A stretch of 64,000 nt of DNA from Chloroflexota bacterium. Its GTDB lineage: Bacteria > Chloroflexota > Ktedonobacteria > Ktedonobacterales > JADMIN01. Shown piece after piece: positions 38,406 to 63,359 of this stretch (position 1 is the first letter of the stretch; each line of letters begins with the position of its first letter). Under the pieces are notes generated by a model, which was given only the letters and a program-made list of their open reading frames with translations, was not told where the DNA came from and made no database searches. Position numbers and translations under genes: made by a program. Location: contig JAJPKE010000005.1 of the NCBI GenBank assembly GCA_021323855.1, positions 45,935 to 109,934 on the forward strand. The letters run 5' to 3'.

Positions 38406-39374
38406 TTGTTTCACATGCATGCTAACCTACTCGATAACCGAGACGAGCCACGCATCGTTGCCGAACTGGCCGGGCGGCTCTTCTCACATATTGAGGCGAT
38501 AGAACGCGTTGCGGAAGGAAAGTCTACGCGCGTTTATTGTATACGTCGCGCACAGGATAATTTCTACCTGCGCATATTGCCGGAGGCTGGGGCCAGTTTT
38601 GCTCCAGAGGCACTGGCGCATACGTTGCTACGCGAGCATGGCGCTCTGGTACCGGAAATCATCTATCTGGAGCACTGTAACGAGTCACTCCAACGTTCCG
38701 TCATGGTAACAACAGCGATTGCTGGTCAATCGCTTGCTCACATTTCCAGAGGCCAAGACATCAGAAAGATCGTACAGGCGGCAGGACGTGACCTGGCCCT
38801 CATTAACAGCATTCCCGTCGCGGGATTCGGCTGGATCAAGCGTGACGGCAGTGATGCTAGCATGCTCTGTGCAGAACATCCTACCTACCGAGAGTTTGCG
38901 TTCGAATATATCGAGGGCGATCTGGCGTTGCTGCGCAGATATGGGTTGAGCCAGCAGGAATTGGCCGCTGTTCACTCGGCTCTCAGTCATTATGATGCCT
39001 GGTTGGATGTTCCGCAGGCATGGTTGGCGCATGGCGACTTCGACGTAACCCACATCTATCATCAAAATGGTCGCTACACCGGTGTCATTGACTTTGGCGA
39101 GATACGTGGCGCTGACCCATTCTATGATCTCGCCCATTTTCGTCTACATGATGGCGAGACACTACCCATGTCCCTGCTCTCCTGGCTGCTGGAAGGTTAT
39201 AGAGAGATAACCTCGCTATCATCGCACATATCGCAGATACTTGCCTTCACCAGCTTGTTGATAGCTATTCGCACGCTGACGCGGTTCCTGAATAGGCGTC
39301 CAGATGATCCATATCACCATATCGGATGGCAAGCTGTTCGTCGCGAGTTGTGGACGTTGCACGGTTTTCAGTAG
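38406..39374 (+). CDS. Aminoglycoside/choline-kinase-type phosphotransferase (APH family)
   Basis: 322 aa. Catalytic loop LAHGDFDVTHIY and GVIDFGE (DFG). Lower-GC region. Confidence 0.75.
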   Translation: MFHMHANLLDNRDEPRIVAELAGRLFSHIEAIERVAEGKSTRVYCIRRAQDNFYLRILPEAGASFAPEALAHTLLREHGALVPEIIYLEHCNESLQRSVMVTTAIAGQSLAHISRGQDIRKIVQAAGRDLALINSIPVAGFGWIKRDGSDASMLCAEHPTYREFAFEYIEGDLALLRRYGLSQQELAAVHSALSHYDAWLDVPQAWLAHGDFDVTHIYHQNGRYTGVIDFGEIRGADPFYDLAHFRLHDGETLPMSLLSWLLEGYREITSLSSHISQILAFTSLLIAIRTLTRFLNRRPDDPYHHIGWQAVRRELWTLHGFQ

Positions 39375-49285: not shown

Positions 49286-50839
49286 ATGGACGTTCGAGTC
49301 AGCACGCGCGATGTGCAGCAGTTCGATGGCGATGCGGTCGCCGTAGGCGTCTTCTCGGATGATACCGAGCTACAGGGTCCGGCGGCGGCGCTGGATGAGG
49401 CGATGGCCGGCGTGCTGACACGGCTGCGCGCGAGCGGCGAAATCACCGGCGCGGCCAGCGAAGTGACGCTGCTGCATACGCTGGGCAAGATCGAGCCGGA
49501 GCGCGTCGCCGTCATCGGCCTGGGGCGGCGCGACCGCTTCACGGCGGAGGTCGTGCGCCGCGCCGCCGCGATTGCCTGCCGCGCGCTGCGCAAGGCTGGC
49601 GCGAAGCGCGTGGGGCTGGCGCTGGCCTGGGCAGAATCCGGCGTGAATCTCGCGCAGGCGGCGCGCGCCGCCACCGAAGGCGCGTTGCTCGGCCTCTATA
49701 GCTTCTCGCGCTATAAGTCGGCAAAGACCGGCGACAACACTGCTAGCAGTGCTAGCGGTGCTAGCGGTGCTAACGGCAAGACCAAAGAAATCGAGTCCAT
49801 CACCATTCTTGGGCGCGGACGCGAGCCGGTGCTGCGCAGCGCCGTCGAGCGCGGGCTGATTCTCGCGGAATCCACCAATTTTGCGCGCGACCTGGGCAAT
49901 GAGCCGCCCAACGTCCTCACGCCCACTGAACTGGCCGAACGCGCCCGCCGCATGGCCGCCGAGGTTGGCCTGAACTGTGAGGTCTATGGACCCGATTGGA
50001 TGCGCGAGCAAGGCATGGGCGCGCTCCTGGGGGTAGCGCAGGGCAGCGCCGAGGAGCCACGCTTCATCGTGCTCGAATATCGTGGCGGCCACGCCGAGGA
50101 GCCAGGACCGGCCTTCGTCGGCAAGGGCATTACCTTCGATAGCGGCGGCATCTCCATCAAGCCAGCGGAGGGGATGCAGGCGATGAAGATGGATATGTGC
50201 GGCGCGGCGGCGGTGATCGGCGCGATGCGCGCGATTGCGCTGCTCAAGCCCGCTATCAATGTCACCGGCATCGTGCCTACCACTGAGAATATGGTCGGCG
50301 GCAAAGCCTATCGCCCCGGCGACATCCTGCGCGCCTCCAACGGCAAGACCATCGAGATCGTCAACACCGATGCGGAGGGACGGCTGATCCTGGCGGATGC
50401 GCTCAGCTACGCCGTCAAGCAGCACTATGCGCCGCTGGTGGACGCGGCAACGCTGACCGGCGCAATGGTGGTGGCGCTTGGCCATGTGCGCGCGGGCATC
50501 TTCAGCAACGATGAGACAGTGCAGCGCGCGGTCATCTCCGCCTCGGAGATTGCCGGTGAGCGACTCTGGCCGATGCCGATGGACCCCGAATATGAGGAGC
50601 AGATTCAGAGTGAAGTTGCCGATGTCCGGCAGACTGGCGGGCGTCCGGCTGGCTCCATTACCGCCGCGAAGATCATCAGCCGCTTTGTGGACGACCAGCC
50701 CTGGGCGCACCTCGATATCGCTGGCGTCAACGACCGCAGCAGCAAAAATGCGGAGAGCGATGCTGGGGCGACGGGCTTCGGCGTGCGCACCTTTGTCGAG
50801 CTGGCAACGTTGCTGGCCGAACGCAACGGCGGGAAGTAG
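49286..50839 (+). CDS. pepA: Leucyl aminopeptidase (M17)
   Basis: 517 aa. VGKGITFDSGG and NTDAEGRLILADAL M17 signatures. Confidence 0.9.
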   Translation: MDVRVSTRDVQQFDGDAVAVGVFSDDTELQGPAAALDEAMAGVLTRLRASGEITGAASEVTLLHTLGKIEPERVAVIGLGRRDRFTAEVVRRAAAIACRALRKAGAKRVGLALAWAESGVNLAQAARAATEGALLGLYSFSRYKSAKTGDNTASSASGASGANGKTKEIESITILGRGREPVLRSAVERGLILAESTNFARDLGNEPPNVLTPTELAERARRMAAEVGLNCEVYGPDWMREQGMGALLGVAQGSAEEPRFIVLEYRGGHAEEPGPAFVGKGITFDSGGISIKPAEGMQAMKMDMCGAAAVIGAMRAIALLKPAINVTGIVPTTENMVGGKAYRPGDILRASNGKTIEIVNTDAEGRLILADALSYAVKQHYAPLVDAATLTGAMVVALGHVRAGIFSNDETVQRAVISASEIAGERLWPMPMDPEYEEQIQSEVADVRQTGGRPAGSITAAKIISRFVDDQPWAHLDIAGVNDRSSKNAESDAGATGFGVRTFVELATLLAERNGGK

Positions 50840-50842
50840 GCG

Positions 50843-50874
50843 CGTATTCGCGGCAGTGAACTGCCGCGAATACG
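50843..50874 (+). terminator. Perfect hairpin directly after pepA
   Basis: CGTATTCGCGGCAG-tgaa-CTGCCGCGAATACG: 14-bp stem, no clear T-run. Confidence 0.5.
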
Positions 50875-50912
50875 AGAACGTTGGACTGAAGTCCGATCCA
50901 CCGCCGATCTGG

Positions 50913-50953
50913 TTCCCCTCTCCCGCGCACGGGGGAGGGGTTAGGGGTGGGGG
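50913..50953 (+). repeat. GC-rich hairpin repeat, family A (G-rich tail last)
   Basis: gttCCCCTCTCCcgcgcacgGGGGAGGGGttaggggtggggg. Confidence 0.85.
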
Positions 50954-51120
50954 CATCCCGAACAGTGAAAAAGACCATAGACGAGCGGCGCGGAAAAGAG
51001 TAGTATGTGCGGCGGGTTCCTGTTTTCGGGAAGCCGCCGTTTTTCGTTTTCATCTGGGTCGTTGTGTCATTCATTCGTTGAGCCGTGTAATCCACGGCAT
51101 TGTGGACTGGGGAGGGCAGC

Positions 51121-54136: not shown

Positions 54137-56074
54137 TTGTTGTCAACCAATTCTCTCCACGATGATTCGCCAGTCGCAGCTACAGCGCCAGGGATTGACC
54201 CTGCCCTTCCCATTGCTGGCGATGAATCCAGCACCGGCGCGCAGACACAGGAGCGGGTACACGAGCGCACTTCAACTCGTATTCCAGGCGAGCAACGCAG
54301 GTACCTTGCCCATTTGTGGCGGCGTTTCCTGCCGGTTCTGCCGCCGCGCGCCAGGAAGTTTCTGTCATATTACCGTCCCTATAAGGGGTTGTTTCTCGCA
54401 GACATGGCCTGCGCGTTTGTCGTCTCGACCATCCCGTTGATCCTGCCGCTCTGTGCGCAATACATCACGCAAAACGTGCTGGGGGGAAGCCAAACCAATG
54501 CGCTGACGCAGATTTACCTGATGGGCGCGGCGATGCTGGCGTTGGTCATCCTGCATACGACCTGCAACATGTTTGTGGACTATCGCGGCCATGTGATGGG
54601 CGCAAAGATGGAAACCGACATGCGGCGGGAACTCTTTGCGCATTATCAGAAGCTCTCGTTCCGCTTCTATGATGAGCAAAAGACCGGCCAGTTGATGACC
54701 CGCCTGACCAATGACATCTTCTGGCTTGCCGAACTCTATCACCACGGGCCGGAAGATGTCACGATTGCCGTGCTGACATTTCTCGGCGTATTCGTCATTC
54801 TCGTGCATGTCAACGTGGCGCTGACGGCGATCATCTTTGCCTTTCTGACCATCATGGCGGTGTATGCGTTTTATTTCAACAGGCGCATGAACATCGCGCT
54901 GCGCAGGACCAAAGATCGCATCGGCGATATCAATGCCCAGGTCGAAGATGCGCTCGCTGGCATCCGCGTCGTCAAATCGTTCACCAACGAAACCATCGAG
55001 GCGCAGAAGTTTGCCTACGCGAACAAGCGATTTCTCGCCAGCCGGGGCGAAGGCTACAAGAGTGAGGCGTACTTTTCTGGGGGTATGGATGCCTTTACGC
55101 AGTTCATCACCATTGCTGTGATCGTCTTTGGTGGCGCGGCCATCGTGCATGCGTCGCTGAATCTGAGCGACCTGCTGACCTATCTGCTCTGCGTCGGCAT
55201 CCTCGTCGTACCGATTCAGCGCATCGTGAACTTTGCCACGCTGTATCAGGAAGGCATCACTGGGTTCAACCGCTTTATGGAGGTGTTGGAGGTCGAGCCA
55301 GATGTCCAGGACTCGCCACATGCCGTCGAGTTGACACAGGCGCAGGGGCATGTGGAGTTCCAGGACGTCAGCTTCAGGTATCAGCAACACCTGCCCGATG
55401 TGTTGAAGCATATCTCGCTGGACATCAAAGCTGGCGAATATGTCGCGCTGGTGGGGGCATCGGGCGTCGGCAAGACTACCCTCTGCTCGCTGATTCCGCG
55501 CTTTTACGATGTCACGGCGGGGAAGACACTGGTAGATGGCTGGGATGTCAGAGATCTCACCTTACGCTCACTGCGCCGGCAGATTGGCATCGTGCAGCAG
55601 GATGTCTATCTCTTTGCCGGGACGGTGGCGGAGAATATTCGCTATGGCAAACTGGACGCCAGCGATGACGAGATCATCGCAGCGGCCAAACAGGCGAACG
55701 CGCATGAGTTCATCATGGCGCTGCCAGACGGTTACAACACGGATATCGGCCAGCGCGGCGTCAAGCTCTCCGGCGGGCAGAAGCAGCGGCTGAGCATTGC
55801 GCGCGTCTTCCTGAAGAATCCGCCGATCATCATCTTCGATGAGGCGACCAGCGCGCTGGACAACGAAAGCGAGCGGGCCATTCAAGAGGCGTTGGAGAAA
55901 CTGACCGACAACCGCACGATGCTGGTGATCGCGCATCGTCTCTCAACGGTCAGGAACGCTCAGCGCATCGTGGTGCTGACCGATGACGGCATTGGCGAGC
56001 AGGGGACGCATGACGAGTTGATCGCGCTGGGCGGCATCTATGCGAATCTCTACAACATGCGGCTAACGATCTAG
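54137..56074 (+). CDS. ABC exporter, fused permease/ATPase (MsbA-like)
   Basis: 645 aa. Six-TM exporter domain plus NBD (GASGVGKTT, LSGGQKQRLSIAR, IIIFDEATSALD). The start codon is uncertain; the track uses TTG. Confidence 0.85.
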   Translation: MLSTNSLHDDSPVAATAPGIDPALPIAGDESSTGAQTQERVHERTSTRIPGEQRRYLAHLWRRFLPVLPPRARKFLSYYRPYKGLFLADMACAFVVSTIPLILPLCAQYITQNVLGGSQTNALTQIYLMGAAMLALVILHTTCNMFVDYRGHVMGAKMETDMRRELFAHYQKLSFRFYDEQKTGQLMTRLTNDIFWLAELYHHGPEDVTIAVLTFLGVFVILVHVNVALTAIIFAFLTIMAVYAFYFNRRMNIALRRTKDRIGDINAQVEDALAGIRVVKSFTNETIEAQKFAYANKRFLASRGEGYKSEAYFSGGMDAFTQFITIAVIVFGGAAIVHASLNLSDLLTYLLCVGILVVPIQRIVNFATLYQEGITGFNRFMEVLEVEPDVQDSPHAVELTQAQGHVEFQDVSFRYQQHLPDVLKHISLDIKAGEYVALVGASGVGKTTLCSLIPRFYDVTAGKTLVDGWDVRDLTLRSLRRQIGIVQQDVYLFAGTVAENIRYGKLDASDDEIIAAAKQANAHEFIMALPDGYNTDIGQRGVKLSGGQKQRLSIARVFLKNPPIIIFDEATSALDNESERAIQEALEKLTDNRTMLVIAHRLSTVRNAQRIVVLTDDGIGEQGTHDELIALGGIYANLYNMRLTI

Positions 56075-56105: not shown

Positions 56106-57659
56106 TCAGAACGTGAGGGTTCCAGAAGGAATAACTTTGCCAATCATGCCACCCTCCCCTCCCTCGTAATCCGTGAACCAGACATTTCCATCGCTGCCGT
56201 TTATCAGGTGGGTAGGGAGGGCACTGGATTGTAGCACGATCTGGTGGACGATTTTGCCCGATGGGGCCATCACCACAACAGTATGAGCATCTTGCTCAGC
56301 AAACCAAATGTTCTTATCCGGGCCGATAGTTATGCCTGTTAGTTTGGCGCGTGTGTCAGGAGCCTTGCGTTCTGTTATTGTTCCTGTTGGCGTCACTTCG
56401 CCAACAAGGCCAGTCTGCTCCGTAAACCAAGCATTGCCGTGAGCATCAACGGCGATGTCGGTCGGATTGGCATTTGCTGTAGGAATGGAAAACTCCTGAA
56501 GTTTCCCTGCGGGAGTTATTTCGCCGATCTGATTCGCCCCGCTTTCCACAAACCATATCGTCCCGTCCACCGTGGCCGTAATCCTTGTTGGTTCAGACTG
56601 GGGTGTGGTAATCGGTAGCACCGAGTAGTCAACTTTGGTTCCTACGCCGTAAGGCGCTGCTCCTTCTGGTTGAAATACGAAGATAGCGTTCGCCTTCTTC
56701 AAAGTAACCCAATACTTTCCATGACTGCTGACAATACCGTAGGGCTGAGCATCAGCGACCGGGATAGAGAATGTATTTGAATAGCTCTGGCTTTGAGCAT
56801 CAAAATATGCGATGGCATTTATGCCTGGCTCTGTCACCCAGAGTGTCTGGTTATCGGGTCCCAGAAGGAGCTCTGTGGGCTCTGTGTTTGGGCGATTGTT
56901 GGTATATTCCGTGATGACTGGACCTTGCTGGCTGCAACAGGATCCAATTCTGTTGTCCTGATCTTCGGTAAACCAGATGGTCCCGTTGGGGCCAGAGGTA
57001 AGATCATAAGGTCTGCCTCCTCCTCCAATGCCGTAGATTGCAGTTGTATAAGATATGGTCAGAGGTCCAGGATTGAAATGCTGAACAAGGTTAACGATCC
57101 CAACGGAGAGAATGACGCAAATAACGATTGCGGCAATGACGGCAAGCGCAACAGGTAGTGAAAAGATCGCAGTCAGGCGAGCGAACAAGTTTTTACGATT
57201 CACCTCGAAGATGGTGTCTTTGCGGGTTGGTCTGGAAACGGCAATCCCTATCGCTTGTGAAAGGAGAGCGATTTGTTTTTGGTATTTCTCTGGAGATAGG
57301 GCAGGCGTGGGGATATCTCGAAAGTCCAGGAGCTGGAACCGACTAATATTCTTTGGCACTGCGGGACAAGATAAACAATAGATGGGAATGATCGGTTTCT
57401 TTTGGCTCTGCGCATAGCGAATCTCTTGTTGGACCCAGGGTGAGGCAAGCGCCGTCGGAGAGAGAATGAGCAAAGTCACCTGGCAACGGTCAATCGCTTC
57501 TCGGATTTCTGCGTTCCAAATCTGACCAGCCTCAATCTTGCGACGATCAACCCAGGTTTGATATCCACCATAGCGCAGATGGGCTTCGAGCGTGTCCACA
57601 AAAGCGCTATCACTGCGCGAATACGAAATGAAAAGTCGAATTGGCTGGCTGACTGCCAT
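56106..57659 (-). CDS. TIR domain - TM helix - seven-bladed Vgb-like (virginiamycin B lyase-type) beta-propeller protein
   Basis: 517 aa. TIR: RLFISYSRSDSAFV...LLILSPTALASPWVQQEIRYA. TM: LPVALAVIAAIVICVILSVGIV. Seven G(P)(D/N)G.(I/L)WF(T/V)E-type repeats. Visibly lower GC. Confidence 0.8.
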   Translation of the reverse strand: MAVSQPIRLFISYSRSDSAFVDTLEAHLRYGGYQTWVDRRKIEAGQIWNAEIREAIDRCQVTLLILSPTALASPWVQQEIRYAQSQKKPIIPIYCLSCPAVPKNISRFQLLDFRDIPTPALSPEKYQKQIALLSQAIGIAVSRPTRKDTIFEVNRKNLFARLTAIFSLPVALAVIAAIVICVILSVGIVNLVQHFNPGPLTISYTTAIYGIGGGGRPYDLTSGPNGTIWFTEDQDNRIGSCCSQQGPVITEYTNNRPNTEPTELLLGPDNQTLWVTEPGINAIAYFDAQSQSYSNTFSIPVADAQPYGIVSSHGKYWVTLKKANAIFVFQPEGAAPYGVGTKVDYSVLPITTPQSEPTRITATVDGTIWFVESGANQIGEITPAGKLQEFSIPTANANPTDIAVDAHGNAWFTEQTGLVGEVTPTGTITERKAPDTRAKLTGITIGPDKNIWFAEQDAHTVVVMAPSGKIVHQIVLQSSALPTHLINGSDGNVWFTDYEGGEGGMIGKVIPSGTLTF

Positions 57660-57911
57660 TTGGGCCTGCTTTCACTATATAAAGATAAGATGGGAAACAG
57701 AAAGCAGCAAGCACTACATTTAACAGCAGTCGGATTATGTTATCAGCGCCTATAGTAGGCATCTACGGAACAGTCTACAAACTCAATACCTCATACCTCA
57801 TCGCGTTTGATTGGTCGAGTTTTGGTGATGAGCATGGTATGACAGCGCTCAATTATTTTACATACACACTTGAGGCAAGTGTCAAGAGAAAATGATGGTA
57901 TGATAGCTGTA

Positions 57912-59738
57912 CTATTGATCCAGAGGCAGGCGTATCTCGCAGATGGTGCCTGCGCCCACCTGTGAGCGTATCGAGAGGCTGCCGCCGTGCGCCCCGGCGA
58001 TCCACTGCGCGATGGCGAGGCCCAACCCGCTGCCGGTTGGCCACTCATCATCCCTATCATCTGGCTCATCCGGCGCTGTTGGTAACACCGACAGAGTGGA
58101 CCCATTCTCCACACTGCCCGCAGTAACAAGCGCAGGGGGCGTGTGCTGGCTATGCGTGCGTGACGGGTCCACACGATAGAACCGCTCGCAGAGATGCGGC
58201 AGATGTTCGGCGGCAATCCCCGGCCCGTCATCTTCTATTAGTAGCGCCGCCCAGTGTTGTCCATCCTGCTCATAGCGGTCCAGAGCAATATGCACGCAGG
58301 CGCCAACGTTCGCGCTGTATTTCAGGGCGTTCTCGACGATATTGGTCAGCATGCGCGCCAGATAGAGATGGTCCCCCTGAACGACGATATCCGGCAGCGG
58401 CGCCATCGTCAGTTGGAGATGGTTCTGGCGCGCCAGCGGCGCCAACCGCTCCACCACCTCCAACACCACCTCGCCCAACTCCACCGGCTCATGGCGCACG
58501 TTGGATTGCCCGGCGTCCGCCCGCGCCATCAGCAGGAGGTCGTCCACCAGCCGCGCCATCGCGCCGTTTTCCTGCTGAATGGCCAGGAGCGACTGGCGCT
58601 CCTCCGGCGTCAAGTTTGGATGAGCCAGCAGGCGGTTGGTTTCCAGATTGACGATGGTGAGCGGCGTGCGCAGTTCATGGCTGGCGTCGGCGGTGAACTG
58701 GCGCTGGCGCGTGAACGCCGCTTCCAGCCGGTCCAGCATATGATCGAAGGTTGCGGCCAGTTCGCCCAGTTCATCGCGCCGGCGCAGTTTGAGCCGCTGG
58801 CTCAGGTCGTGCGCGCCGATCTGCTGCGCCGTGCGCGTAATCGTCTGCACCGGGCGCATGGCAAGGCCCGCCAGCCAAAAGCCCCCGAACGAGGCGATCA
58901 ACAGAACCAGCGGTGCAAGGGTCAAGAGGACGCTGGCGAGGTTATCGAGCTGCGCCTGCACCTCGTTGGGGGTGCCGACCACCAGCAGCGCCACCTCCTG
59001 TTGCTGTTGCGTGCCAGGCTGCTGGCGCATGATCGGCATGCTGGTCACGCTATACAAATCGCCGCCCAACCCGCCGTCCGGCAGATTGAATTTGAGGCCC
59101 ATCTGGATGGACGGATAGGTTCCACCAGCGGCGGGAGTACGCAGCGCGTTCGTTTGCAGCACAGTGCGCACCAATTGATCGAGTGAGGCGCTAGTGAGGG
59201 ACTGCGCTGGCTCCTGTTTGAGGCTGCCATCCGGCGCCAGCAGCAACACGACTTCACGGCTGGGAAGAGAATCGAGCGCCGTCTTGCCCAGTGGAGACTT
59301 TCGCGCAGGAATGACGCCATATTGCGGCGTATAGTCCAGTAGACCCGTCTGGTCGTCATAGGTGGCGGCAATCTGTTGCAGGCGCGTATCCAGTTGCTTG
59401 TTGAGGTCATCATAGAGATATTTTTGCTGGGTGTAGTAGATGCCAAAGGCCAGCGCGATGATGACCGCTGCCAGCACAGCGATATACCAGAGCGTCAGCC
59501 GCATGCGCACGCTGAGCAGCAGGCGCAGCGGATAGCGCCAGCCGTCGCGCCGGATGCCGCGTATGAGCAGCCCCGCCACGACGAGCGCCACTGCGCCAAA
59601 AAACAGCGGGATATGGGTATACGAGTTCACCTGAAATATCAGCGTGACGAAGGCGGCGGCGCAGGCGAGCAACACCAGCGCCAGCGCCAGGCGCAGTATC
59701 CAGCGGCGCATACCGACCTCCTTACTGCTTGCGTTCAT
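57912..59738 (-). CDS. Sensor histidine kinase
   Basis: 608 aa (alternative start ATG 59711). Two TM segments flank a large extracytoplasmic domain. H-box FTADASHELRTPLT. The HATPase domain carries a 40-aa lid insertion. Confidence 0.85.
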   Translation of the reverse strand: MNASSKEVGMRRWILRLALALVLLACAAAFVTLIFQVNSYTHIPLFFGAVALVVAGLLIRGIRRDGWRYPLRLLLSVRMRLTLWYIAVLAAVIIALAFGIYYTQQKYLYDDLNKQLDTRLQQIAATYDDQTGLLDYTPQYGVIPARKSPLGKTALDSLPSREVVLLLAPDGSLKQEPAQSLTSASLDQLVRTVLQTNALRTPAAGGTYPSIQMGLKFNLPDGGLGGDLYSVTSMPIMRQQPGTQQQQEVALLVVGTPNEVQAQLDNLASVLLTLAPLVLLIASFGGFWLAGLAMRPVQTITRTAQQIGAHDLSQRLKLRRRDELGELAATFDHMLDRLEAAFTRQRQFTADASHELRTPLTIVNLETNRLLAHPNLTPEERQSLLAIQQENGAMARLVDDLLLMARADAGQSNVRHEPVELGEVVLEVVERLAPLARQNHLQLTMAPLPDIVVQGDHLYLARMLTNIVENALKYSANVGACVHIALDRYEQDGQHWAALLIEDDGPGIAAEHLPHLCERFYRVDPSRTHSQHTPPALVTAGSVENGSTLSVLPTAPDEPDDRDDEWPTGSGLGLAIAQWIAGAHGGSLSIRSQVGAGTICEIRLPLDQ

Positions 59739-59755: not shown

Positions 59756-60445
59756 TCACGAGCGGCGCTGTGGCTCGCGCAACCGGTAGCCGACGCCGCG
59801 CATCGTCTCCAACATCTCGCCAGCGAACGGCTCATCTATCTTGCGGCGCAGACGGCGCACATAGACATCTACGATATTAGAGACGCTGGTAAAATCGTAG
59901 CTCCAGATATGGTCCTCGATCATCTCGCGGGTCAACACCTGATTGGGATGGCGCAGGAAATATTCGAGCAGGGCAAACTCTCTGGCCGTCAGGTCAATAT
60001 GCTGCCCTTCGCGCTGCACCACGTGCGTCGCCGGGTCGGCGCTGAGGTCGCCAAGCGTCAACAGGCCGGTCTTCTGCGGCGCATTGCGGCGGAGCAGCGC
60101 CCGCAGCCGCGCCAGTAGTTCATGCAGCGCGAACGGCTTGACCAGATAGTCGTCGGCGCCACTGTCCAGCCCGCTCACCCGGTCCTCGATGGCGTCACGC
60201 GCCGTCAGCATCAGGATCGGCGTGTTGATGCGCTGCCGGCGGAGCGCGCGGCAGACCAGAATACCATCTTTTCCTGGCAGCATGACATCAAGGATGATCG
60301 CATCATAGGCCACGCTTTCGGCATACGACTGGCCCTCATCGCCGTCGAAAACGGCATCCACGGCATAGCCTTCGTCGAGCAGGCTCGCCTTGAGCGAATG
60401 GCTCAGCCGGTGGTCGTCTTCAACCAAGAGTATTCGCATGCGCAC
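59756..60445 (-). CDS. OmpR/PhoB-family response regulator
   Basis: 229 aa. ILLVEDD...ILDVMLPGKDG receiver plus a winged-helix domain. Confidence 0.9.
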   Translation of the reverse strand: MRMRILLVEDDHRLSHSLKASLLDEGYAVDAVFDGDEGQSYAESVAYDAIILDVMLPGKDGILVCRALRRQRINTPILMLTARDAIEDRVSGLDSGADDYLVKPFALHELLARLRALLRRNAPQKTGLLTLGDLSADPATHVVQREGQHIDLTAREFALLEYFLRHPNQVLTREMIEDHIWSYDFTSVSNIVDVYVRRLRRKIDEPFAGEMLETMRGVGYRLREPQRRS

Positions 60446-60576: not shown

Positions 60577-63129
60577 CTAGGTAGGGTGCAGGAGTTGCGC
60601 GCAAATTATTTCTGGTTGGTCAGCATAGGTCTCGCCGCGCCCCCAGGCGGCAGCGAATGTCTCATTATCCATCTGCTGTCTGATATGTTCGCGGACGGCT
60701 GTGAAGTCGGCTTCCTCAGATGGCGGCAAAGGCGCGTCAATCAATGTGCGCAATCCGGTAACGGCTCCGCCAATCAGTGCTGCTTGCTCCATAGCGCCTT
60801 CTCTCGCCAATAGCTCCATCCAGCCTTGCAGCGTCACGGCAATACCTACCTTCTCGCCCAGGGCAAGGCGAAGCTCCAATGCCTCGGTCATCGCGCTGCG
60901 AGCCGCTGCAAGATTTCCCAGGTGAATCGCCACGCCGCCCAGATTCGTCAGCACGAGCGCAATGCGCTGCTTATCTCCGAGGCTGCGGAAGAGAGTGAGT
61001 GACTCCTCAAAATAGGACCGGGCGCGCGCATAGTCTTTCAGTGCAAGGGCAGCGCATCCCAGGTTGGTCAGCGACGAAGCAGTGCCAAATGTATCGCGCA
61101 GTTCGCGGCGGATGCTCAGGCTTTCCTCATGATGCTGGATGGCGCCTGCGTAGTCTCCCTGGATGTGCAGTACCTCGCCCAGATTGTTGAGCGAGATGCC
61201 CATGCCCCAGCGATCCCCAATCGCTCGCCGCAGTTCCAACCCCTGCCGGTAGCGTTCAGCCGCCTGGGTATAATCACCATGATAGAGCGCGATCACCCCA
61301 AGATTGCTGAGCGCCGCCGCGATCCCTGTGCGGTCCTCATTGGCGCGAAAAATATCCAGGCTTCGTGTAAAGGCGGCTTCCGCAACGTCGTAATCTCCCT
61401 GCACCCACGCCAGTGACCCCGCGCCCTGATACAGCTTGCCCAGAGACGCAGGCGGCACCTGCTGCTCGCTCGCCAGCGTCTCCGCGATCCATTGACGGCC
61501 CTCGCTGACATAGCCGTGAAGCCACCAGAAGCGCCACAACGCGGCGCCGATACGACCAAGCACGTCAAAACGCTCCTGGCTTGTGGCCCATTGTAGTGTG
61601 GCGCGGATGTTAGGATAGTCGCTTTCGAGCAGATCTAGCCAGTGCTGCTGCTCCGCGCCGACCAATTCTGGCTCTGCGCGTTCGACCAATTCCAGAAAGT
61701 AGCCAGCATGACGCTCGCGAGCCGTTTCATCGGCGTCAGTTTCAGAGAGTTGCAGTAGCGCAAATTCGCGGATTGTCTCAAGCATCTGGAAGCGCGGCTC
61801 GCCGTCGCCAGCATTGCCGCTCAGCACAATGAGGCTCTTATCGGCAAGCCGGTCGAGGAGATCAGTGGTATCTTGGTCCATCCGGCAGACCGCCGTGGCC
61901 GCCTCAATGGTCCAGCCGCCGACGAACACGCCAAGCATATGGAATGCTCTCCGGTCGTCTCCCTTCAGCAGCCCCTCGCTCCATGCCAGCGCATTCCGCA
62001 AGGTTTGATGGCGCTCTGGCATATTCTCCGGGCCGCCGACGAGCAATCCCAGGCGATTATCCATATGCGACAGCACCGCGTCGAGCGAGAGACGGCGCAT
62101 GCGAGCCGCCGCTAGCTCCAGCGCCAGCGGCAAACCGTCGAGATGCGCGCAAATCCTGGCGACCTGCGGGGCGTTGCCAGCGGAGAGCGCGAACGCGGGC
62201 TGCACGGCGCGCACTCGTGCCACAAAGAGGCGAATCGCTGAACTCGTCTGGAATGCGCTCAAGAGAGGCGCTGCGGCAAGATCAGGCACGTCGAGTGGCG
62301 GAACAGCAAATTCATATTCGCCGTAAAGCTGCAAAGGTGTCCGGCTGGTGACCAGCACCGTCAGGTCCGGCGCTTCTGTAAGCAGTTCAGCGATTACACC
62401 GGCGGCTTTGAGAACATGCTCGAAATTGTCGAGGACAAGTAGCGCACGGCCCTGCCGTAATGTCGCCACGATCTGCTCACGCAACGTATCAGGCGTATCG
62501 CTCGCGATCTTGAGCGCGCGTCCAATAGCAGGAAGCACATAGCCTGGCGCGGTGATGGCGGCAAGGCTGATGAAATAGATGCCGCCTGCATAGCCTTCTT
62601 GCAGATCTATCGCCAGTTGCACCGCCAGCCGCGTCTTGCCGACGCCACCTGTGCCGGTGAGCGTCATCAGGCGCGCACCGGCAGCGAGTAGTTCTTTGAT
62701 CTGTTGCAATTCCGTTTCGCGTCCGATGAGCGGCGTCAGAGGCGCAGGAATGCCCAGAAGAGTTGCGGACGGTCGAGAACTGGCAGTTTGGGGAGAAGAC
62801 GTTGGCGATGAGGACGGCAATGGCGCCATTGGCGACAACAAACTGAGCGGTGGTTGTTGCCATTCGGCTTCGCTGAAGTGCTGCCTGCCCATATCCATAT
62901 AGGAGAGCATCTCTACCACTTCAGCCTGGGAGGTAAAGGCCAGCCAGCGGGCGAGGATCACCACGATCTGTTTGATCTCAGTGTGCGTCAGTTGCGAGTT
63001 GCTAATGCCGTTGAGCTTATGGCTGAGAACATCAGGATTCAGGCCGAGCGCAGCGGCCAGCGCTTTCTGCGATTGCCCTATCAGGCGAAGATACGATTTC
63101 AGTTTGGCGCGAAAAGCCTCTAGTTGCAT
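60577..63129 (-). CDS. STAND-class NTPase regulator: XRE-type HTH - NB-ARC/AAA - TPR array
   Basis: About 850 aa. ATG 63129 has GAGGGG upstream (the track start is 63150). HTH GQSQKALAAALGLNPDVLSHKLNG. Walker A GTGGVGKTRLA, Walker B LLVLDNFEHV. C-terminal TPRs repeat the (A/S)L.NLG pattern. Confidence 0.8.
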   Translation of the reverse strand: MQLEAFRAKLKSYLRLIGQSQKALAAALGLNPDVLSHKLNGISNSQLTHTEIKQIVVILARWLAFTSQAEVVEMLSYMDMGRQHFSEAEWQQPPLSLLSPMAPLPSSSPTSSPQTASSRPSATLLGIPAPLTPLIGRETELQQIKELLAAGARLMTLTGTGGVGKTRLAVQLAIDLQEGYAGGIYFISLAAITAPGYVLPAIGRALKIASDTPDTLREQIVATLRQGRALLVLDNFEHVLKAAGVIAELLTEAPDLTVLVTSRTPLQLYGEYEFAVPPLDVPDLAAAPLLSAFQTSSAIRLFVARVRAVQPAFALSAGNAPQVARICAHLDGLPLALELAAARMRRLSLDAVLSHMDNRLGLLVGGPENMPERHQTLRNALAWSEGLLKGDDRRAFHMLGVFVGGWTIEAATAVCRMDQDTTDLLDRLADKSLIVLSGNAGDGEPRFQMLETIREFALLQLSETDADETARERHAGYFLELVERAEPELVGAEQQHWLDLLESDYPNIRATLQWATSQERFDVLGRIGAALWRFWWLHGYVSEGRQWIAETLASEQQVPPASLGKLYQGAGSLAWVQGDYDVAEAAFTRSLDIFRANEDRTGIAAALSNLGVIALYHGDYTQAAERYRQGLELRRAIGDRWGMGISLNNLGEVLHIQGDYAGAIQHHEESLSIRRELRDTFGTASSLTNLGCAALALKDYARARSYFEESLTLFRSLGDKQRIALVLTNLGGVAIHLGNLAAARSAMTEALELRLALGEKVGIAVTLQGWMELLAREGAMEQAALIGGAVTGLRTLIDAPLPPSEEADFTAVREHIRQQMDNETFAAAWGRGETYADQPEIICAQLLHPT

Positions 63130-63359
63130 CGGCGGCCCCTCATTGTTCATTGTTCATTTTTATACAGAGGCTTACCTGAAGTTCTGCCCATTATACACGT
63201 ATACACGTCGAAGCTCGTTATCGTATTGTTGCCGGTTGTTGACTGATAATAGGGGAAACGGGCGATTAGGCGATGCGAGCAGCACGTCACCCATCCTCTC
63301 ATGCCATACAGATAGAGAGAAGATGAGTGACAAAGACGGAGTGTTGATTGTTTAGGGTA

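Follow-up and report, generated by a model that had tools for sequence, protein, structure and literature searches.

A putative outside-in TIR protein from a soil bacterium, combining a SARM1-like TIR domain, one membrane helix and a Vgb-type propeller

To our knowledge, infection is sensed inside the cell by Thoeris, SPARTA, TIR-SAVED, the Avs-like fusions and the E. coli proteins TIR-I to TIR-IX. In E. coli, defence by single-gene TIR systems requires the active site of the TIR domain, and one of these systems has a TM domain (PMC11350192). The protein reported here is a stand-alone TIR protein like TIR-I to TIR-IX, of which one is membrane-associated, but no extracytoplasmic sensor domain was described for any of them (PMC11350192). 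The authors of that study noted that the membrane and ectodomain features of Toll-like receptors (TLRs) are seemingly absent from bacterial TIR systems. Fusions of a TIR domain or a kinase to NPCBM or FGS sensor domains were reported from multicellular bacteria (Kaur et al., 2021; PMC8195603). There, a ligand-binding sensor can carry either a TIR domain or a Ser/Thr kinase as its output, the two being interchangeable, and FGS (FGE-sulfatase) is common to these fusions and to the ectodomains of the TIR-TM class delineated below. The passages considered here deal mainly with cytoplasmic STAND/ternary systems and describe no single-pass TIR protein with an outward Vgb propeller.

The TIR NADases of SARM1 and SPARTA share with the present protein the TIR fold, the BB-loop Gly, an Asp and a catalytic-type Glu with a Trp at position -4 relative to it, and activation by induced self-association would be expected here by analogy. 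The regulatory module differs, being made of cytosolic ARM/SAM domains in SARM1, of Argonaute/APAZ in SPARTA and of a predicted extracytoplasmic propeller here. In Toll-like/IL-1 receptors (including Hydra TRR-2), a single membrane passage connects a ligand-binding ectodomain with a cytoplasmic TIR domain, a layout resembling the present one. However, their type I order (ectodomain, TM, C-terminal TIR) is inverted to TIR, TM, ectodomain (type II), and their ectodomain is made of LRR or Ig domains instead of a propeller. No evidence was found for common descent of the whole architecture with these receptors. Kinases of the M. tuberculosis PknD type and the Ser/Thr kinases P0006, P0026 and P0116, which also carry a Vgb-type propeller behind one TM helix, have a cytoplasmic output, one TM helix and an extracytoplasmic NHL/Vgb propeller as well, but the output is a kinase and not a TIR domain. 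The propeller of PknD is six-bladed, and the present one has seven blades. Vgb itself is a soluble enzyme of 299 aa, whereas the propeller studied here is part of a fusion with a TIR domain and is tethered to the membrane.

The gene (56106..57659, minus strand) is located in a stretch of 64,000 nucleotides (the window) from a soil bacterium. According to the ORF list and Pfam, it is complete and codes for 517 aa organised as TIR domain, TM helix and seven-bladed propeller. Only one hydrophobic segment was detected, at aa 163-193 (57081..57173, minus strand), with Kyte-Doolittle values up to 3.14 over 19 aa. It lies inside a long helix (aa 151-194), which the AF2 model divides into helices 151-165 and 167-194. 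Within 18 residues of the segment, three K/R are present on the N-terminal side and none on the C-terminal side. Hydropathy and the restriction of K/R to the TIR side agree with the original prediction of a TIR domain inside and a propeller outside, and from these two features we infer the topology in vivo, in which the protein would be of type II (N-in, C-out) and cross the membrane once.

A class of proteins with a TIR_2 domain, one TM and a variable ectodomain was delineated in the present analysis and is not a curated family. Its members display an N-terminal TIR domain of the FISYSR-WVDRRK-E type, one TM flanked by K/R on the TIR side and, C-terminally, a domain of 60 aa or more, and all of these features are present in the protein studied here. 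The pattern used for the metagenome DNA scan was built from a TIR alignment of 4 sequences, the one of 15 sequences being too diverse. The TIR-1TM-C-terminal domain layout was found in 21 of the 58 complete metagenomic ORFs of the TIR subfamily, with more K/R on the TIR side in 19 of the 21. The single-pass layout with interchangeable ectodomains thus occurs in about one third of the subfamily and is not a one-off. The ectodomains comprise PQQ/BamB propeller, FGE-sulfatase, WD40, Peptidase_M23, PG_binding_1+PEGA, Ig-like and TPR domains; PG_binding_1+PEGA, Peptidase_M23 and the PQQ/BamB propeller are typical envelope modules. The pairing of TIR and Vgb is rare, and was found in one other protein (P0025), which is a class member together with P0126, P0127, P0129, P0187, P0220, P0245 and P0257. 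Proteins of the type TIR-TM-TM-TIR and multi-TIR proteins are also among the relatives. When only the TIR+TM module served as query, a word-indexed homology search gave 6 proteins, and the scan of the genome collection gave relatives of the propeller part only. An exhaustive search returned as best 150 relatives mostly proteins with 3-7 tandem TIRs, which are little informative as a guide to the present architecture.

The architecture had been thought undescribed. This stands for TIR-TM-propeller, since the literature searched describes no bacterial TIR domain joined to an outward-facing propeller via one TM helix; the layout as such (21/58) is common, and only the Vgb ectodomain is rare. Judged by its sequence features, the protein belongs to a widespread class of bacterial "outside-in" TIR proteins, of which it represents a rare version. 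One tractable experiment on any of the members would therefore give access to the class as a whole.

The predicted cytoplasmic TIR domain covers aa 8-142 (57234..57638, minus strand). The HMM search identified Pfam TIR_2 (PF13676) at aa 10-115 with an E-value of 7.2e-26 and 91.5 bits against a cut-off of 28, as anticipated for the N-terminal region. The AF2 model of the TIR domain only (pLDDT 85.1, pTM 0.81) shows the flavodoxin-like alpha/beta TIR fold. With this model, Foldseek found 93 matches in the PDB at E <= 0.001; the best 50 of the 93 were all TIR-domain proteins. The best PDB match is the NADase TIR of SARM1 (phmmer sequence E-value 3e-6; Foldseek E-value 8e-8, TMq 0.69). The TIR-APAZ chains of SPARTA rank next (TMq 0.73-0.76), and are NADases activated by tetramerisation according to the titles of the PDB entries. 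By residue mapping, SARM1 Y568/R570/D594/G601/W638/E642 correspond to Y13/R15/D38/G45/W75/E79, and R569 is replaced by S14. In SARM1, functional roles are attributed to D594, W638, Y568, R569 and R570. The codons of the putative catalytic glutamate E79 (57423..57425) and of W75 preceding it (57435-57437) were located from the phmmer alignment and the residue mapping, and that of G45 (57525..57527), within the BB-loop motif D-R-R-K-I-E-A-G-Q, from the alignment to SARM1, all on the minus strand. E79 is invariant in 15 of the 15 aligned subfamily members, and so are G45 and D38. The expected catalytic-type context of the glutamate is thus confirmed by its alignment with E642 of SARM1, but the motif is W-x-x-x-E (W75-V-Q-Q-E79) and not W-x-x-E as originally proposed. 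Unlike that of the Toll-like/IL-1 receptors, the TIR domain resembles enzymatic rather than adaptor TIRs.

The architecture is solid, and from it we infer the function, namely NADase activity, activation by clustering, a ligand and a role in defence or stress response. Our preferred reading, tentative and with just less than even confidence, is a one-component transmembrane sensor-effector in which clustering outside activates the NADase inside. The propeller would bind an envelope or extracellular ligand outside the cytoplasmic membrane, with no lyase role. Ligand-driven clustering of the ectodomains would then bring together the SARM1-like TIR domains in the cytoplasm, and their self-association would complete the active site around E79, leading to cleavage of NAD+ as in other TIR NADases. 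Cells would then stop growing or die, or an ADPR-derived signal would be made. Induced proximity is sufficient to activate TIR signalling (PMC7414095). Support for this reading comes from the SARM1 residues kept by the TIR domain, from the recurrence of the layout with envelope modules among the ectodomains and from a gene lacking conserved neighbours, whereas the Ser in place of SARM1 R569, the ordinary chromosomal surroundings and PADLOC matches confined to the TIR domain count against it.

The TIR domain could instead be non-enzymatic and, like those of animal TLRs and MyD88, serve for self-association or as an adaptor, which would cluster the propeller at the membrane or recruit other TIR proteins. 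A glutamate equivalent to SARM1 E642 is necessary for NADase activity, but neither sufficient nor diagnostic (PMC7075850), the TIRs of MyD88 and Hydra TRR-2 are among the fold matches listed, and the TIR-TM-TM-TIR and multi-TIR relatives suggest TIR-TIR assembly. The invariance of E79, G45 and D38 together with the matched active-site residues of SARM1 nevertheless exceeds what scaffolding needs, and no partner TIR gene is located near the gene, which makes this alternative unlikely.

The genes next to the TIR gene code for a histidine kinase, a response regulator and an ABC exporter. A two-component system and a STAND ATPase are encoded upstream; they were considered as partners and rejected, as they do not recur beside the relatives. 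The ABC exporter is transcribed convergently to the TIR gene, and other genomes conserve it with no TIR gene beside it; its relatives (76-79% identity) share no synteny. Because no conserved neighbour was found at this locus or at the loci of the relatives, the TIR gene is self-contained. No defence island was detected, as PADLOC gave generic ABC, TPR and receiver-domain matches only for six neighbours, and the neighbourhood corresponds to ordinary chromosome. The anti-phage role that had been considered therefore finds no support in the context, where defence island, Thoeris-type effector and conserved neighbour are all missing.

The same neighbourhood bears on a Thoeris-like function, in which a membrane TIR sensor, once triggered, would produce a cyclic or linear ADPR-derived messenger for an effector whose gene lies at another place in the genome, the output not being NAD+ depletion. 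Both chemistries are served by one set of catalytic residues, and signals produced by TIR domains are widespread among bacteria (preprint 10.64898/2025.12.03.692087). The TIR domain is also matched by the Pfam model ThsB_TIR (4e-8) and by several ThsB models of PADLOC, but the PADLOC matches are at the level of the TIR domain only and those of the ThsB models concern the TIR core only. With 42 bits, the NCBIfam model of Thoeris ThcB4 stayed below its cut-off of 220. Moreover, no effector gene (ThsA-like, SLOG, Macro or other) was found beside the present gene or those of three relatives, and the closest TIRs, from SARM1 and SPARTA, are NAD-depleting effectors. Taken on these points, a Thoeris-like function is improbable.

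The propeller, a predicted extracytoplasmic domain of Vgb/NHL type, covers aa 203-512 (56124..57053, minus strand). Pfam detected Vgb_lyase (7.2e-54, 183 bits against a cut-off of 50) and SGL (7.7e-9). A W[FV] motif is present once in each of the seven blades (W229, 274, 317, 369, 411, 452 and 494), and the AF2 model of the protein (pLDDT 85.7) contains 28 strands after the helix, in line with the seven Vgb/NHL-like repeats first recognised. Foldseek superposed the propeller on the Vgb structures 2qc5, 2z2n, 2z2o and 2z2p with a TM-score on the target of 0.89-0.91 and an rmsd of 2.1-2.6 A, and Vgb corresponds to it blade for blade at 27% identity. It also matches the Pizza designer proteins, which were derived from the PknD propeller.

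Residues were compared with Vgb in a Trp-anchored blade table with the register taken from the structural superposition; an unconstrained global sequence alignment, with the register off by two blades, was discarded. In this in-register comparison, H228/E268/H270 of Vgb correspond to T441/L481/T483, and a His at the position equivalent to the Vgb site is absent from all blades. H270 is catalytic in Vgb as supported by the title of PDB 2z2p. H228 and E268 reportedly are catalytic or metal residues, a statement going back to Korczynska and co-workers in 2007. The domain is thus Vgb-like in fold, as had been proposed, but not in the metal and catalytic residues of the lyase. Because these residues are lost and the NCBIfam models VgbA and VgbB score far under their cut-off (159 and 133 bits against 600), the propeller is, as far as its residues tell, not a streptogramin lyase. 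Having lost the lyase residues, it is therefore probably a binding (sensor) domain, by analogy with the kinase-TM-Vgb proteins. A membrane-anchored extracytoplasmic Vgb/SGL lyase or lactonase whose external substrate is a cyclic depsipeptide or a lactone (e.g. an antibiotic), with the TIR domain as accessory, is very improbable despite the strong Vgb_lyase and SGL profile matches, the full-length superposition on Vgb (TM-score on target 0.9) and the adjoining ABC exporter, given the substituted residues, the low VgbA/VgbB scores, the non-enzymatic Ig-like, PEGA and TPR modules which hold the same position in the TIR subfamily, and the convergent exporter conserved elsewhere without a TIR neighbour.

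Extended from this sensor-effector to the whole class, TIR-TM-ectodomain proteins might be bacterial cell-surface pattern-recognition receptors which switch on a TIR NADase directly, a generalisation that we regard as rather doubtful. If true, such a receptor would detect a phage particle, a competitor molecule or envelope damage before entry into the cytoplasm. It would be a functional counterpart of Toll-like receptors with an enzymatic output, an independent origin and inverted polarity, and the swappable ectodomains would form a specificity repertoire. A regulatory domain located outside would imply that bacteria relay immune or stress signals from the outside in by an enzymatic module shared with SARM1 and plant TIR receptors. 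The use of Vgb-type propellers as sensors of receptor kinases offers an independent route to the ligand.

The gene was expected to be lower in GC than its surroundings, and this was confirmed, with a GC of 0.506 and a GC3 of 0.508 against a GC3 of 0.64-0.82 for 24 of the 25 other genes measured. The low GC is uniform across the TIR, TM and propeller parts. Since its GC3 is below that of the neighbours, this contrast by itself suggests that the gene is foreign; of the proposed horizontal acquisition, the atypical composition holds, and composition is its sole basis. An AT-rich intergenic region of 252 bp (57660..57911, minus strand), recognised from sequence and GC profile, is located upstream and presumably contains the gene's own promoter. 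The promoter scan of this region gave 0 sites with the sigma-70 consensus, neither a sigma-70-like promoter nor a convincing terminator was found around the gene, and the window contains no Rfam element. A search of RNA runs found none that contains the gene. The identical protein of 517 aa was called on 17 metagenome/MAG contigs, and the near-identical members of the cluster differ by single residues or by the start-codon call.

The ORF list gave the TIR gene exactly the coordinates of the original prediction (56106..57659, minus strand), with a product of 517 aa. Both domains expected in the query protein were recovered above the Pfam cut-offs: residues 10-115 matched TIR_2 (7.2e-26, 91.5 bits, cut-off 28) and the C-terminal part matched Vgb_lyase (7.2e-54, 183 bits, cut-off 50), with weaker matches to SGL and Reg_prop over the same region. 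A single hydrophobic segment was found at residues 163-193 (Kyte-Doolittle hydropathy means up to 3.14), preceded by RPTRKDTIFEVNRKNLFAR and followed by an uncharged stretch. Given an N-terminal domain devoid of a signal peptide, the positive-inside rule predicts a TIR located in the cytoplasm and a C-terminal domain located outside the membrane. The W[FV] blade motif occurs seven times (W229, W274, W317, W369, W411, W452 and W494). The predicted layout of one TM helix, TIR inside and seven propeller repeats outside thus agrees with the single segment, the charge pattern and the motif count. The AlphaFold2 model (mean pLDDT 85.7) displayed a TIR alpha/beta unit (residues 8-142), a long helix (151-194) and 28 strands.

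Among all PDB sequences, SARM1 TIR chains were the best TIR matches to the query (E ~3e-6), and the TIR of CRISPR-associated Cat1 ranked next. A structure search with a TIR-only model (pLDDT 85.1, pTM 0.81) retrieved the SARM1 TIR first (E 8e-8, TMq 0.64-0.70) and SPARTA TIR-APAZ chains second (TMq 0.73-0.76), with Hydra TRR-2, MyD88, ThsB and AbTir as further fold neighbours. Residues were mapped by alignment to a full-length SARM1 chain, the numbering being checked by the titles of 6o1b ('G601P') and 7cm7 ('E642A'). Y13, R15, D38, G45, W75 and E79 of the query correspond to SARM1 Y568, R570, D594, G601, W638 and E642, respectively, while Ser14 occupies the position of R569. The glutamate of NAD-cleaving TIRs was therefore correctly recognised in the original prediction, but its 'W-x-x-E' motif was misspaced, the actual sequence being W75-V-Q-Q-E79. 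In the 15 aligned TIRs of the same subfamily (FISYSR-WVDRRK-E kind), E79, G45 and D38 were unchanged throughout, and the W75 position was W, Y, F or N. With these conserved SARM1 residues the TIR looks catalytically competent and NADase activity is predicted, bearing in mind that a Glu at the catalytic position occurs in >70% of all TIRs and alone is no predictor of this activity (survey, PMC7075850). A TIR serving as a pure, non-enzymatic scaffold is considered unlikely; the same low probability is given to a Thoeris-like TIR producing a signal that acts through a distant effector.

Superposition of the modelled propeller on streptogramin B lyase (Vgb) structures gave TM-scores on target of 0.89-0.91 and rmsd values of 2.1-2.6 Å at 26-28% identity, and since it spans the entire domain, the blades pair one to one. 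H228 and E268 are reportedly among the catalytic or metal-binding residues of Vgb, a finding credited to Korczynska et al. in 2007. In structural register, T441 (KLTGIT) stands at H228 (blade 6, RPHAIT), and L481 and T483 (ALPTHL) stand at E268 and H270 (blade 7, AEPHGI), the latter being catalytic according to the title of PDB 2z2p. Blade comparison revealed no His at the equivalent position in any blade of the query, and the NCBIfam VgbA/VgbB models scored 133-159 bits against a cut-off of 600. Because all three residues are replaced and the family scores lie far under the cut-off, the propeller is Vgb-like in fold and not a Vgb lyase; the earlier label 'Vgb-like' holds for the fold and fails for the lyase residues and family scores. 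That the propeller is a membrane-anchored extracytoplasmic enzyme of the lyase or lactonase kind is very improbable. A binding function is more likely, supported by the same kind of propeller on TM-anchored Ser/Thr kinases. In five such relatives (P0006, P0026 and P0116, also P0091 and P0114), a single TM helix connects a Ser/Thr kinase to a propeller of the Vgb type with seven blades, and the first three match the layout of PknD-type receptor kinases. Their sole annotation is 'serine/threonine protein kinase/streptogramin lyase'. The designed 'Pizza' propellers, which derive from the PknD sensor domain, also match the query propeller.

Each part of the query is already known, be it TIR NADase, Vgb/NHL propeller or the logic of single-pass receptors. 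Also known is the principle that, in the conflict systems of multicellular bacteria, a sensor domain may carry either a TIR or a kinase as its exchangeable output (PMC8195603). The literature searched contained no account of a bacterial TIR protein that crosses the membrane once and bears a sensor domain outside the cytoplasm, in line with the original remark that such a TIR was not recognised as a described system, and TLR-like membrane and ectodomain features are seemingly absent from bacterial TIR systems according to a study in E. coli (PMC11350192). The best-supported reading, a tentative one and somewhat short of probable, is a one-protein transmembrane sensor-effector. A ligand or an envelope change would cluster the propellers outside the cell, which would draw the TIR domains together inside, where their SARM1-like active site would cleave NAD+. 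This reading is favoured because oligomerisation activates the TIR NADases that are closest in structure, the same ectodomain serves receptor kinases, induced proximity suffices for TIR signalling (PMC7414095), and E. coli is defended via the TIR active site by single-gene TIR systems, one of which contains a TM domain (PMC11350192).

A full-protein search yielded 1770 significant matches, of which the best 120 were considered (lowest 199 bits). Among these, the only other TIR and Vgb cluster was P0025/P0124 (831 aa), which has the same TIR-TM-propeller order but 14 blades. Close TIR-TM-Vgb relatives are thus rare, since a two-domain relative at similar identity would exceed 199 bits and rank among these 120; more distant ones may exist. 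An exhaustive search with the TIR+TM module returned 48,210 TIR proteins at E ≤ 0.001; among the matches listed, the closest single-TIR relatives (37-55% identity) were often membrane-anchored. They included TIR-TM proteins with Ig-like repeats (P0126, P0127, P0129, P0187, P0245), a PQQ/BamB propeller (P0220, P0272) or a beta domain without assigned family (P0257), TIR-TM-TM-TIR proteins (P0139, P0140, P0160) and TIRs plus multi-pass domains. In the TIR-TM-TM-TIR proteins, with a TIR at either end, both TIRs would share the same membrane side. The top of the search was occupied by proteins of 1200-2300 aa with 3-7 tandem TIRs (P0131-P0138 and others).

Scanning metagenome contigs for DNA patterns of the subfamily motifs gave 80 loci, with complete ORFs in 58. 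In 21 of these 58 (36%), a TIR and a single TM helix precede a C-terminal stretch of 88-841 aa; another 11 have other membrane-associated layouts, and 25 had no TM helix. A K/R excess lay on the TIR side in 19 of the 21 single-TM ORFs. Ectodomains confirmed by Pfam were a PQQ/BamB propeller, FGE-sulfatase, tandem WD40 propellers, Peptidase_M23 with Ig-like, and PG_binding_1 with PEGA and Ig-like domains; several of these modules are typical of the cell envelope, as the predicted topology would lead one to expect. The Vgb propeller was found in none of the 80 loci. With its ectodomain the query is thus a rare variant within a common architectural class: the exact TIR-Vgb pairing is rare, while sequence data contain the enclosing class in abundance and the TIR-TM-ectodomain layout is not singular. 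The main value of the query is that a class-level question on TIR-TM-ectodomain proteins becomes testable. Five loci from several samples (L070, L081, L082, L099, L100) encode compact proteins (~296 aa) in which three TM helices at the N-terminus are combined with a TIR of this subfamily at the C-terminus.

The low GC noted originally was evident at third codon positions, with a GC3 of 0.508. Of 25 other genes measured, 24 had values of 0.64-0.82. The TIR, TM and propeller parts of the gene were equally low. Support for the proposed horizontal acquisition comes from composition, synteny being lost at the 73-79% identity of the ABC-exporter relatives. A second compositional outlier at 38406..39374 (+; GC 0.53, GC3 0.557), with a weak aminoglycoside-phosphotransferase-like match (48 bits, cut-off 205), may likewise be foreign. 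The GC-rich window has many long ORFs on the strand opposite real genes, such as 56793..57158 (+) and 49370..50956 opposite the leucyl aminopeptidase gene, which look like compositional artefacts, not genes.

The query protein was identical on 17 contigs (soil and mine metagenomes, MAGs), with constant neighbours; the gene turned up in no RNA run. Directly upstream, across a 252-bp AT-rich gap, lie genes of normal (high) GC for a HAMP-HisKA-HATPase histidine kinase (57912..59738, -) and an OmpR-type response regulator (59756..60445, -), a pair which did not recur next to TIR relatives. Further upstream, beyond these two genes, 60577..63150 (-) encodes a product of 857 aa that carries an HTH at its N-terminus, a STAND ATPase of the NB-ARC/AAA_22 type and TPR repeats; it revealed no link to the TIR gene. 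The convergent downstream gene encodes an ABC exporter (54137..56074, +) whose nearest named relatives belong to Chloroflexota MAGs (Anaerolineae, Ktedonobacteraceae). It is unusually conserved, at 73-79% identity across these MAGs and reaching Paenibacillus proteins, and carries an N-terminal extension of ~60 aa missing from most relatives. The host is probably a member of the Chloroflexota whose close relatives have not been sequenced. PADLOC detected no specific defence genes among the neighbours, and the 64-kb window held no paralogue. The loci of P0025, P0127 and P0126 had no neighbour in common with the query locus or among themselves, so the TIR gene looks self-contained. On the P0127 contig (L020, 8278..13085), the TIR-TM-Ig-like gene lies amid several IS/transposase genes (DDE_Tnp_1, DDE_5 and OrfB_IS605/Cas12f-like TnpB), surroundings which are consistent with mobility of such TIR-TM genes.
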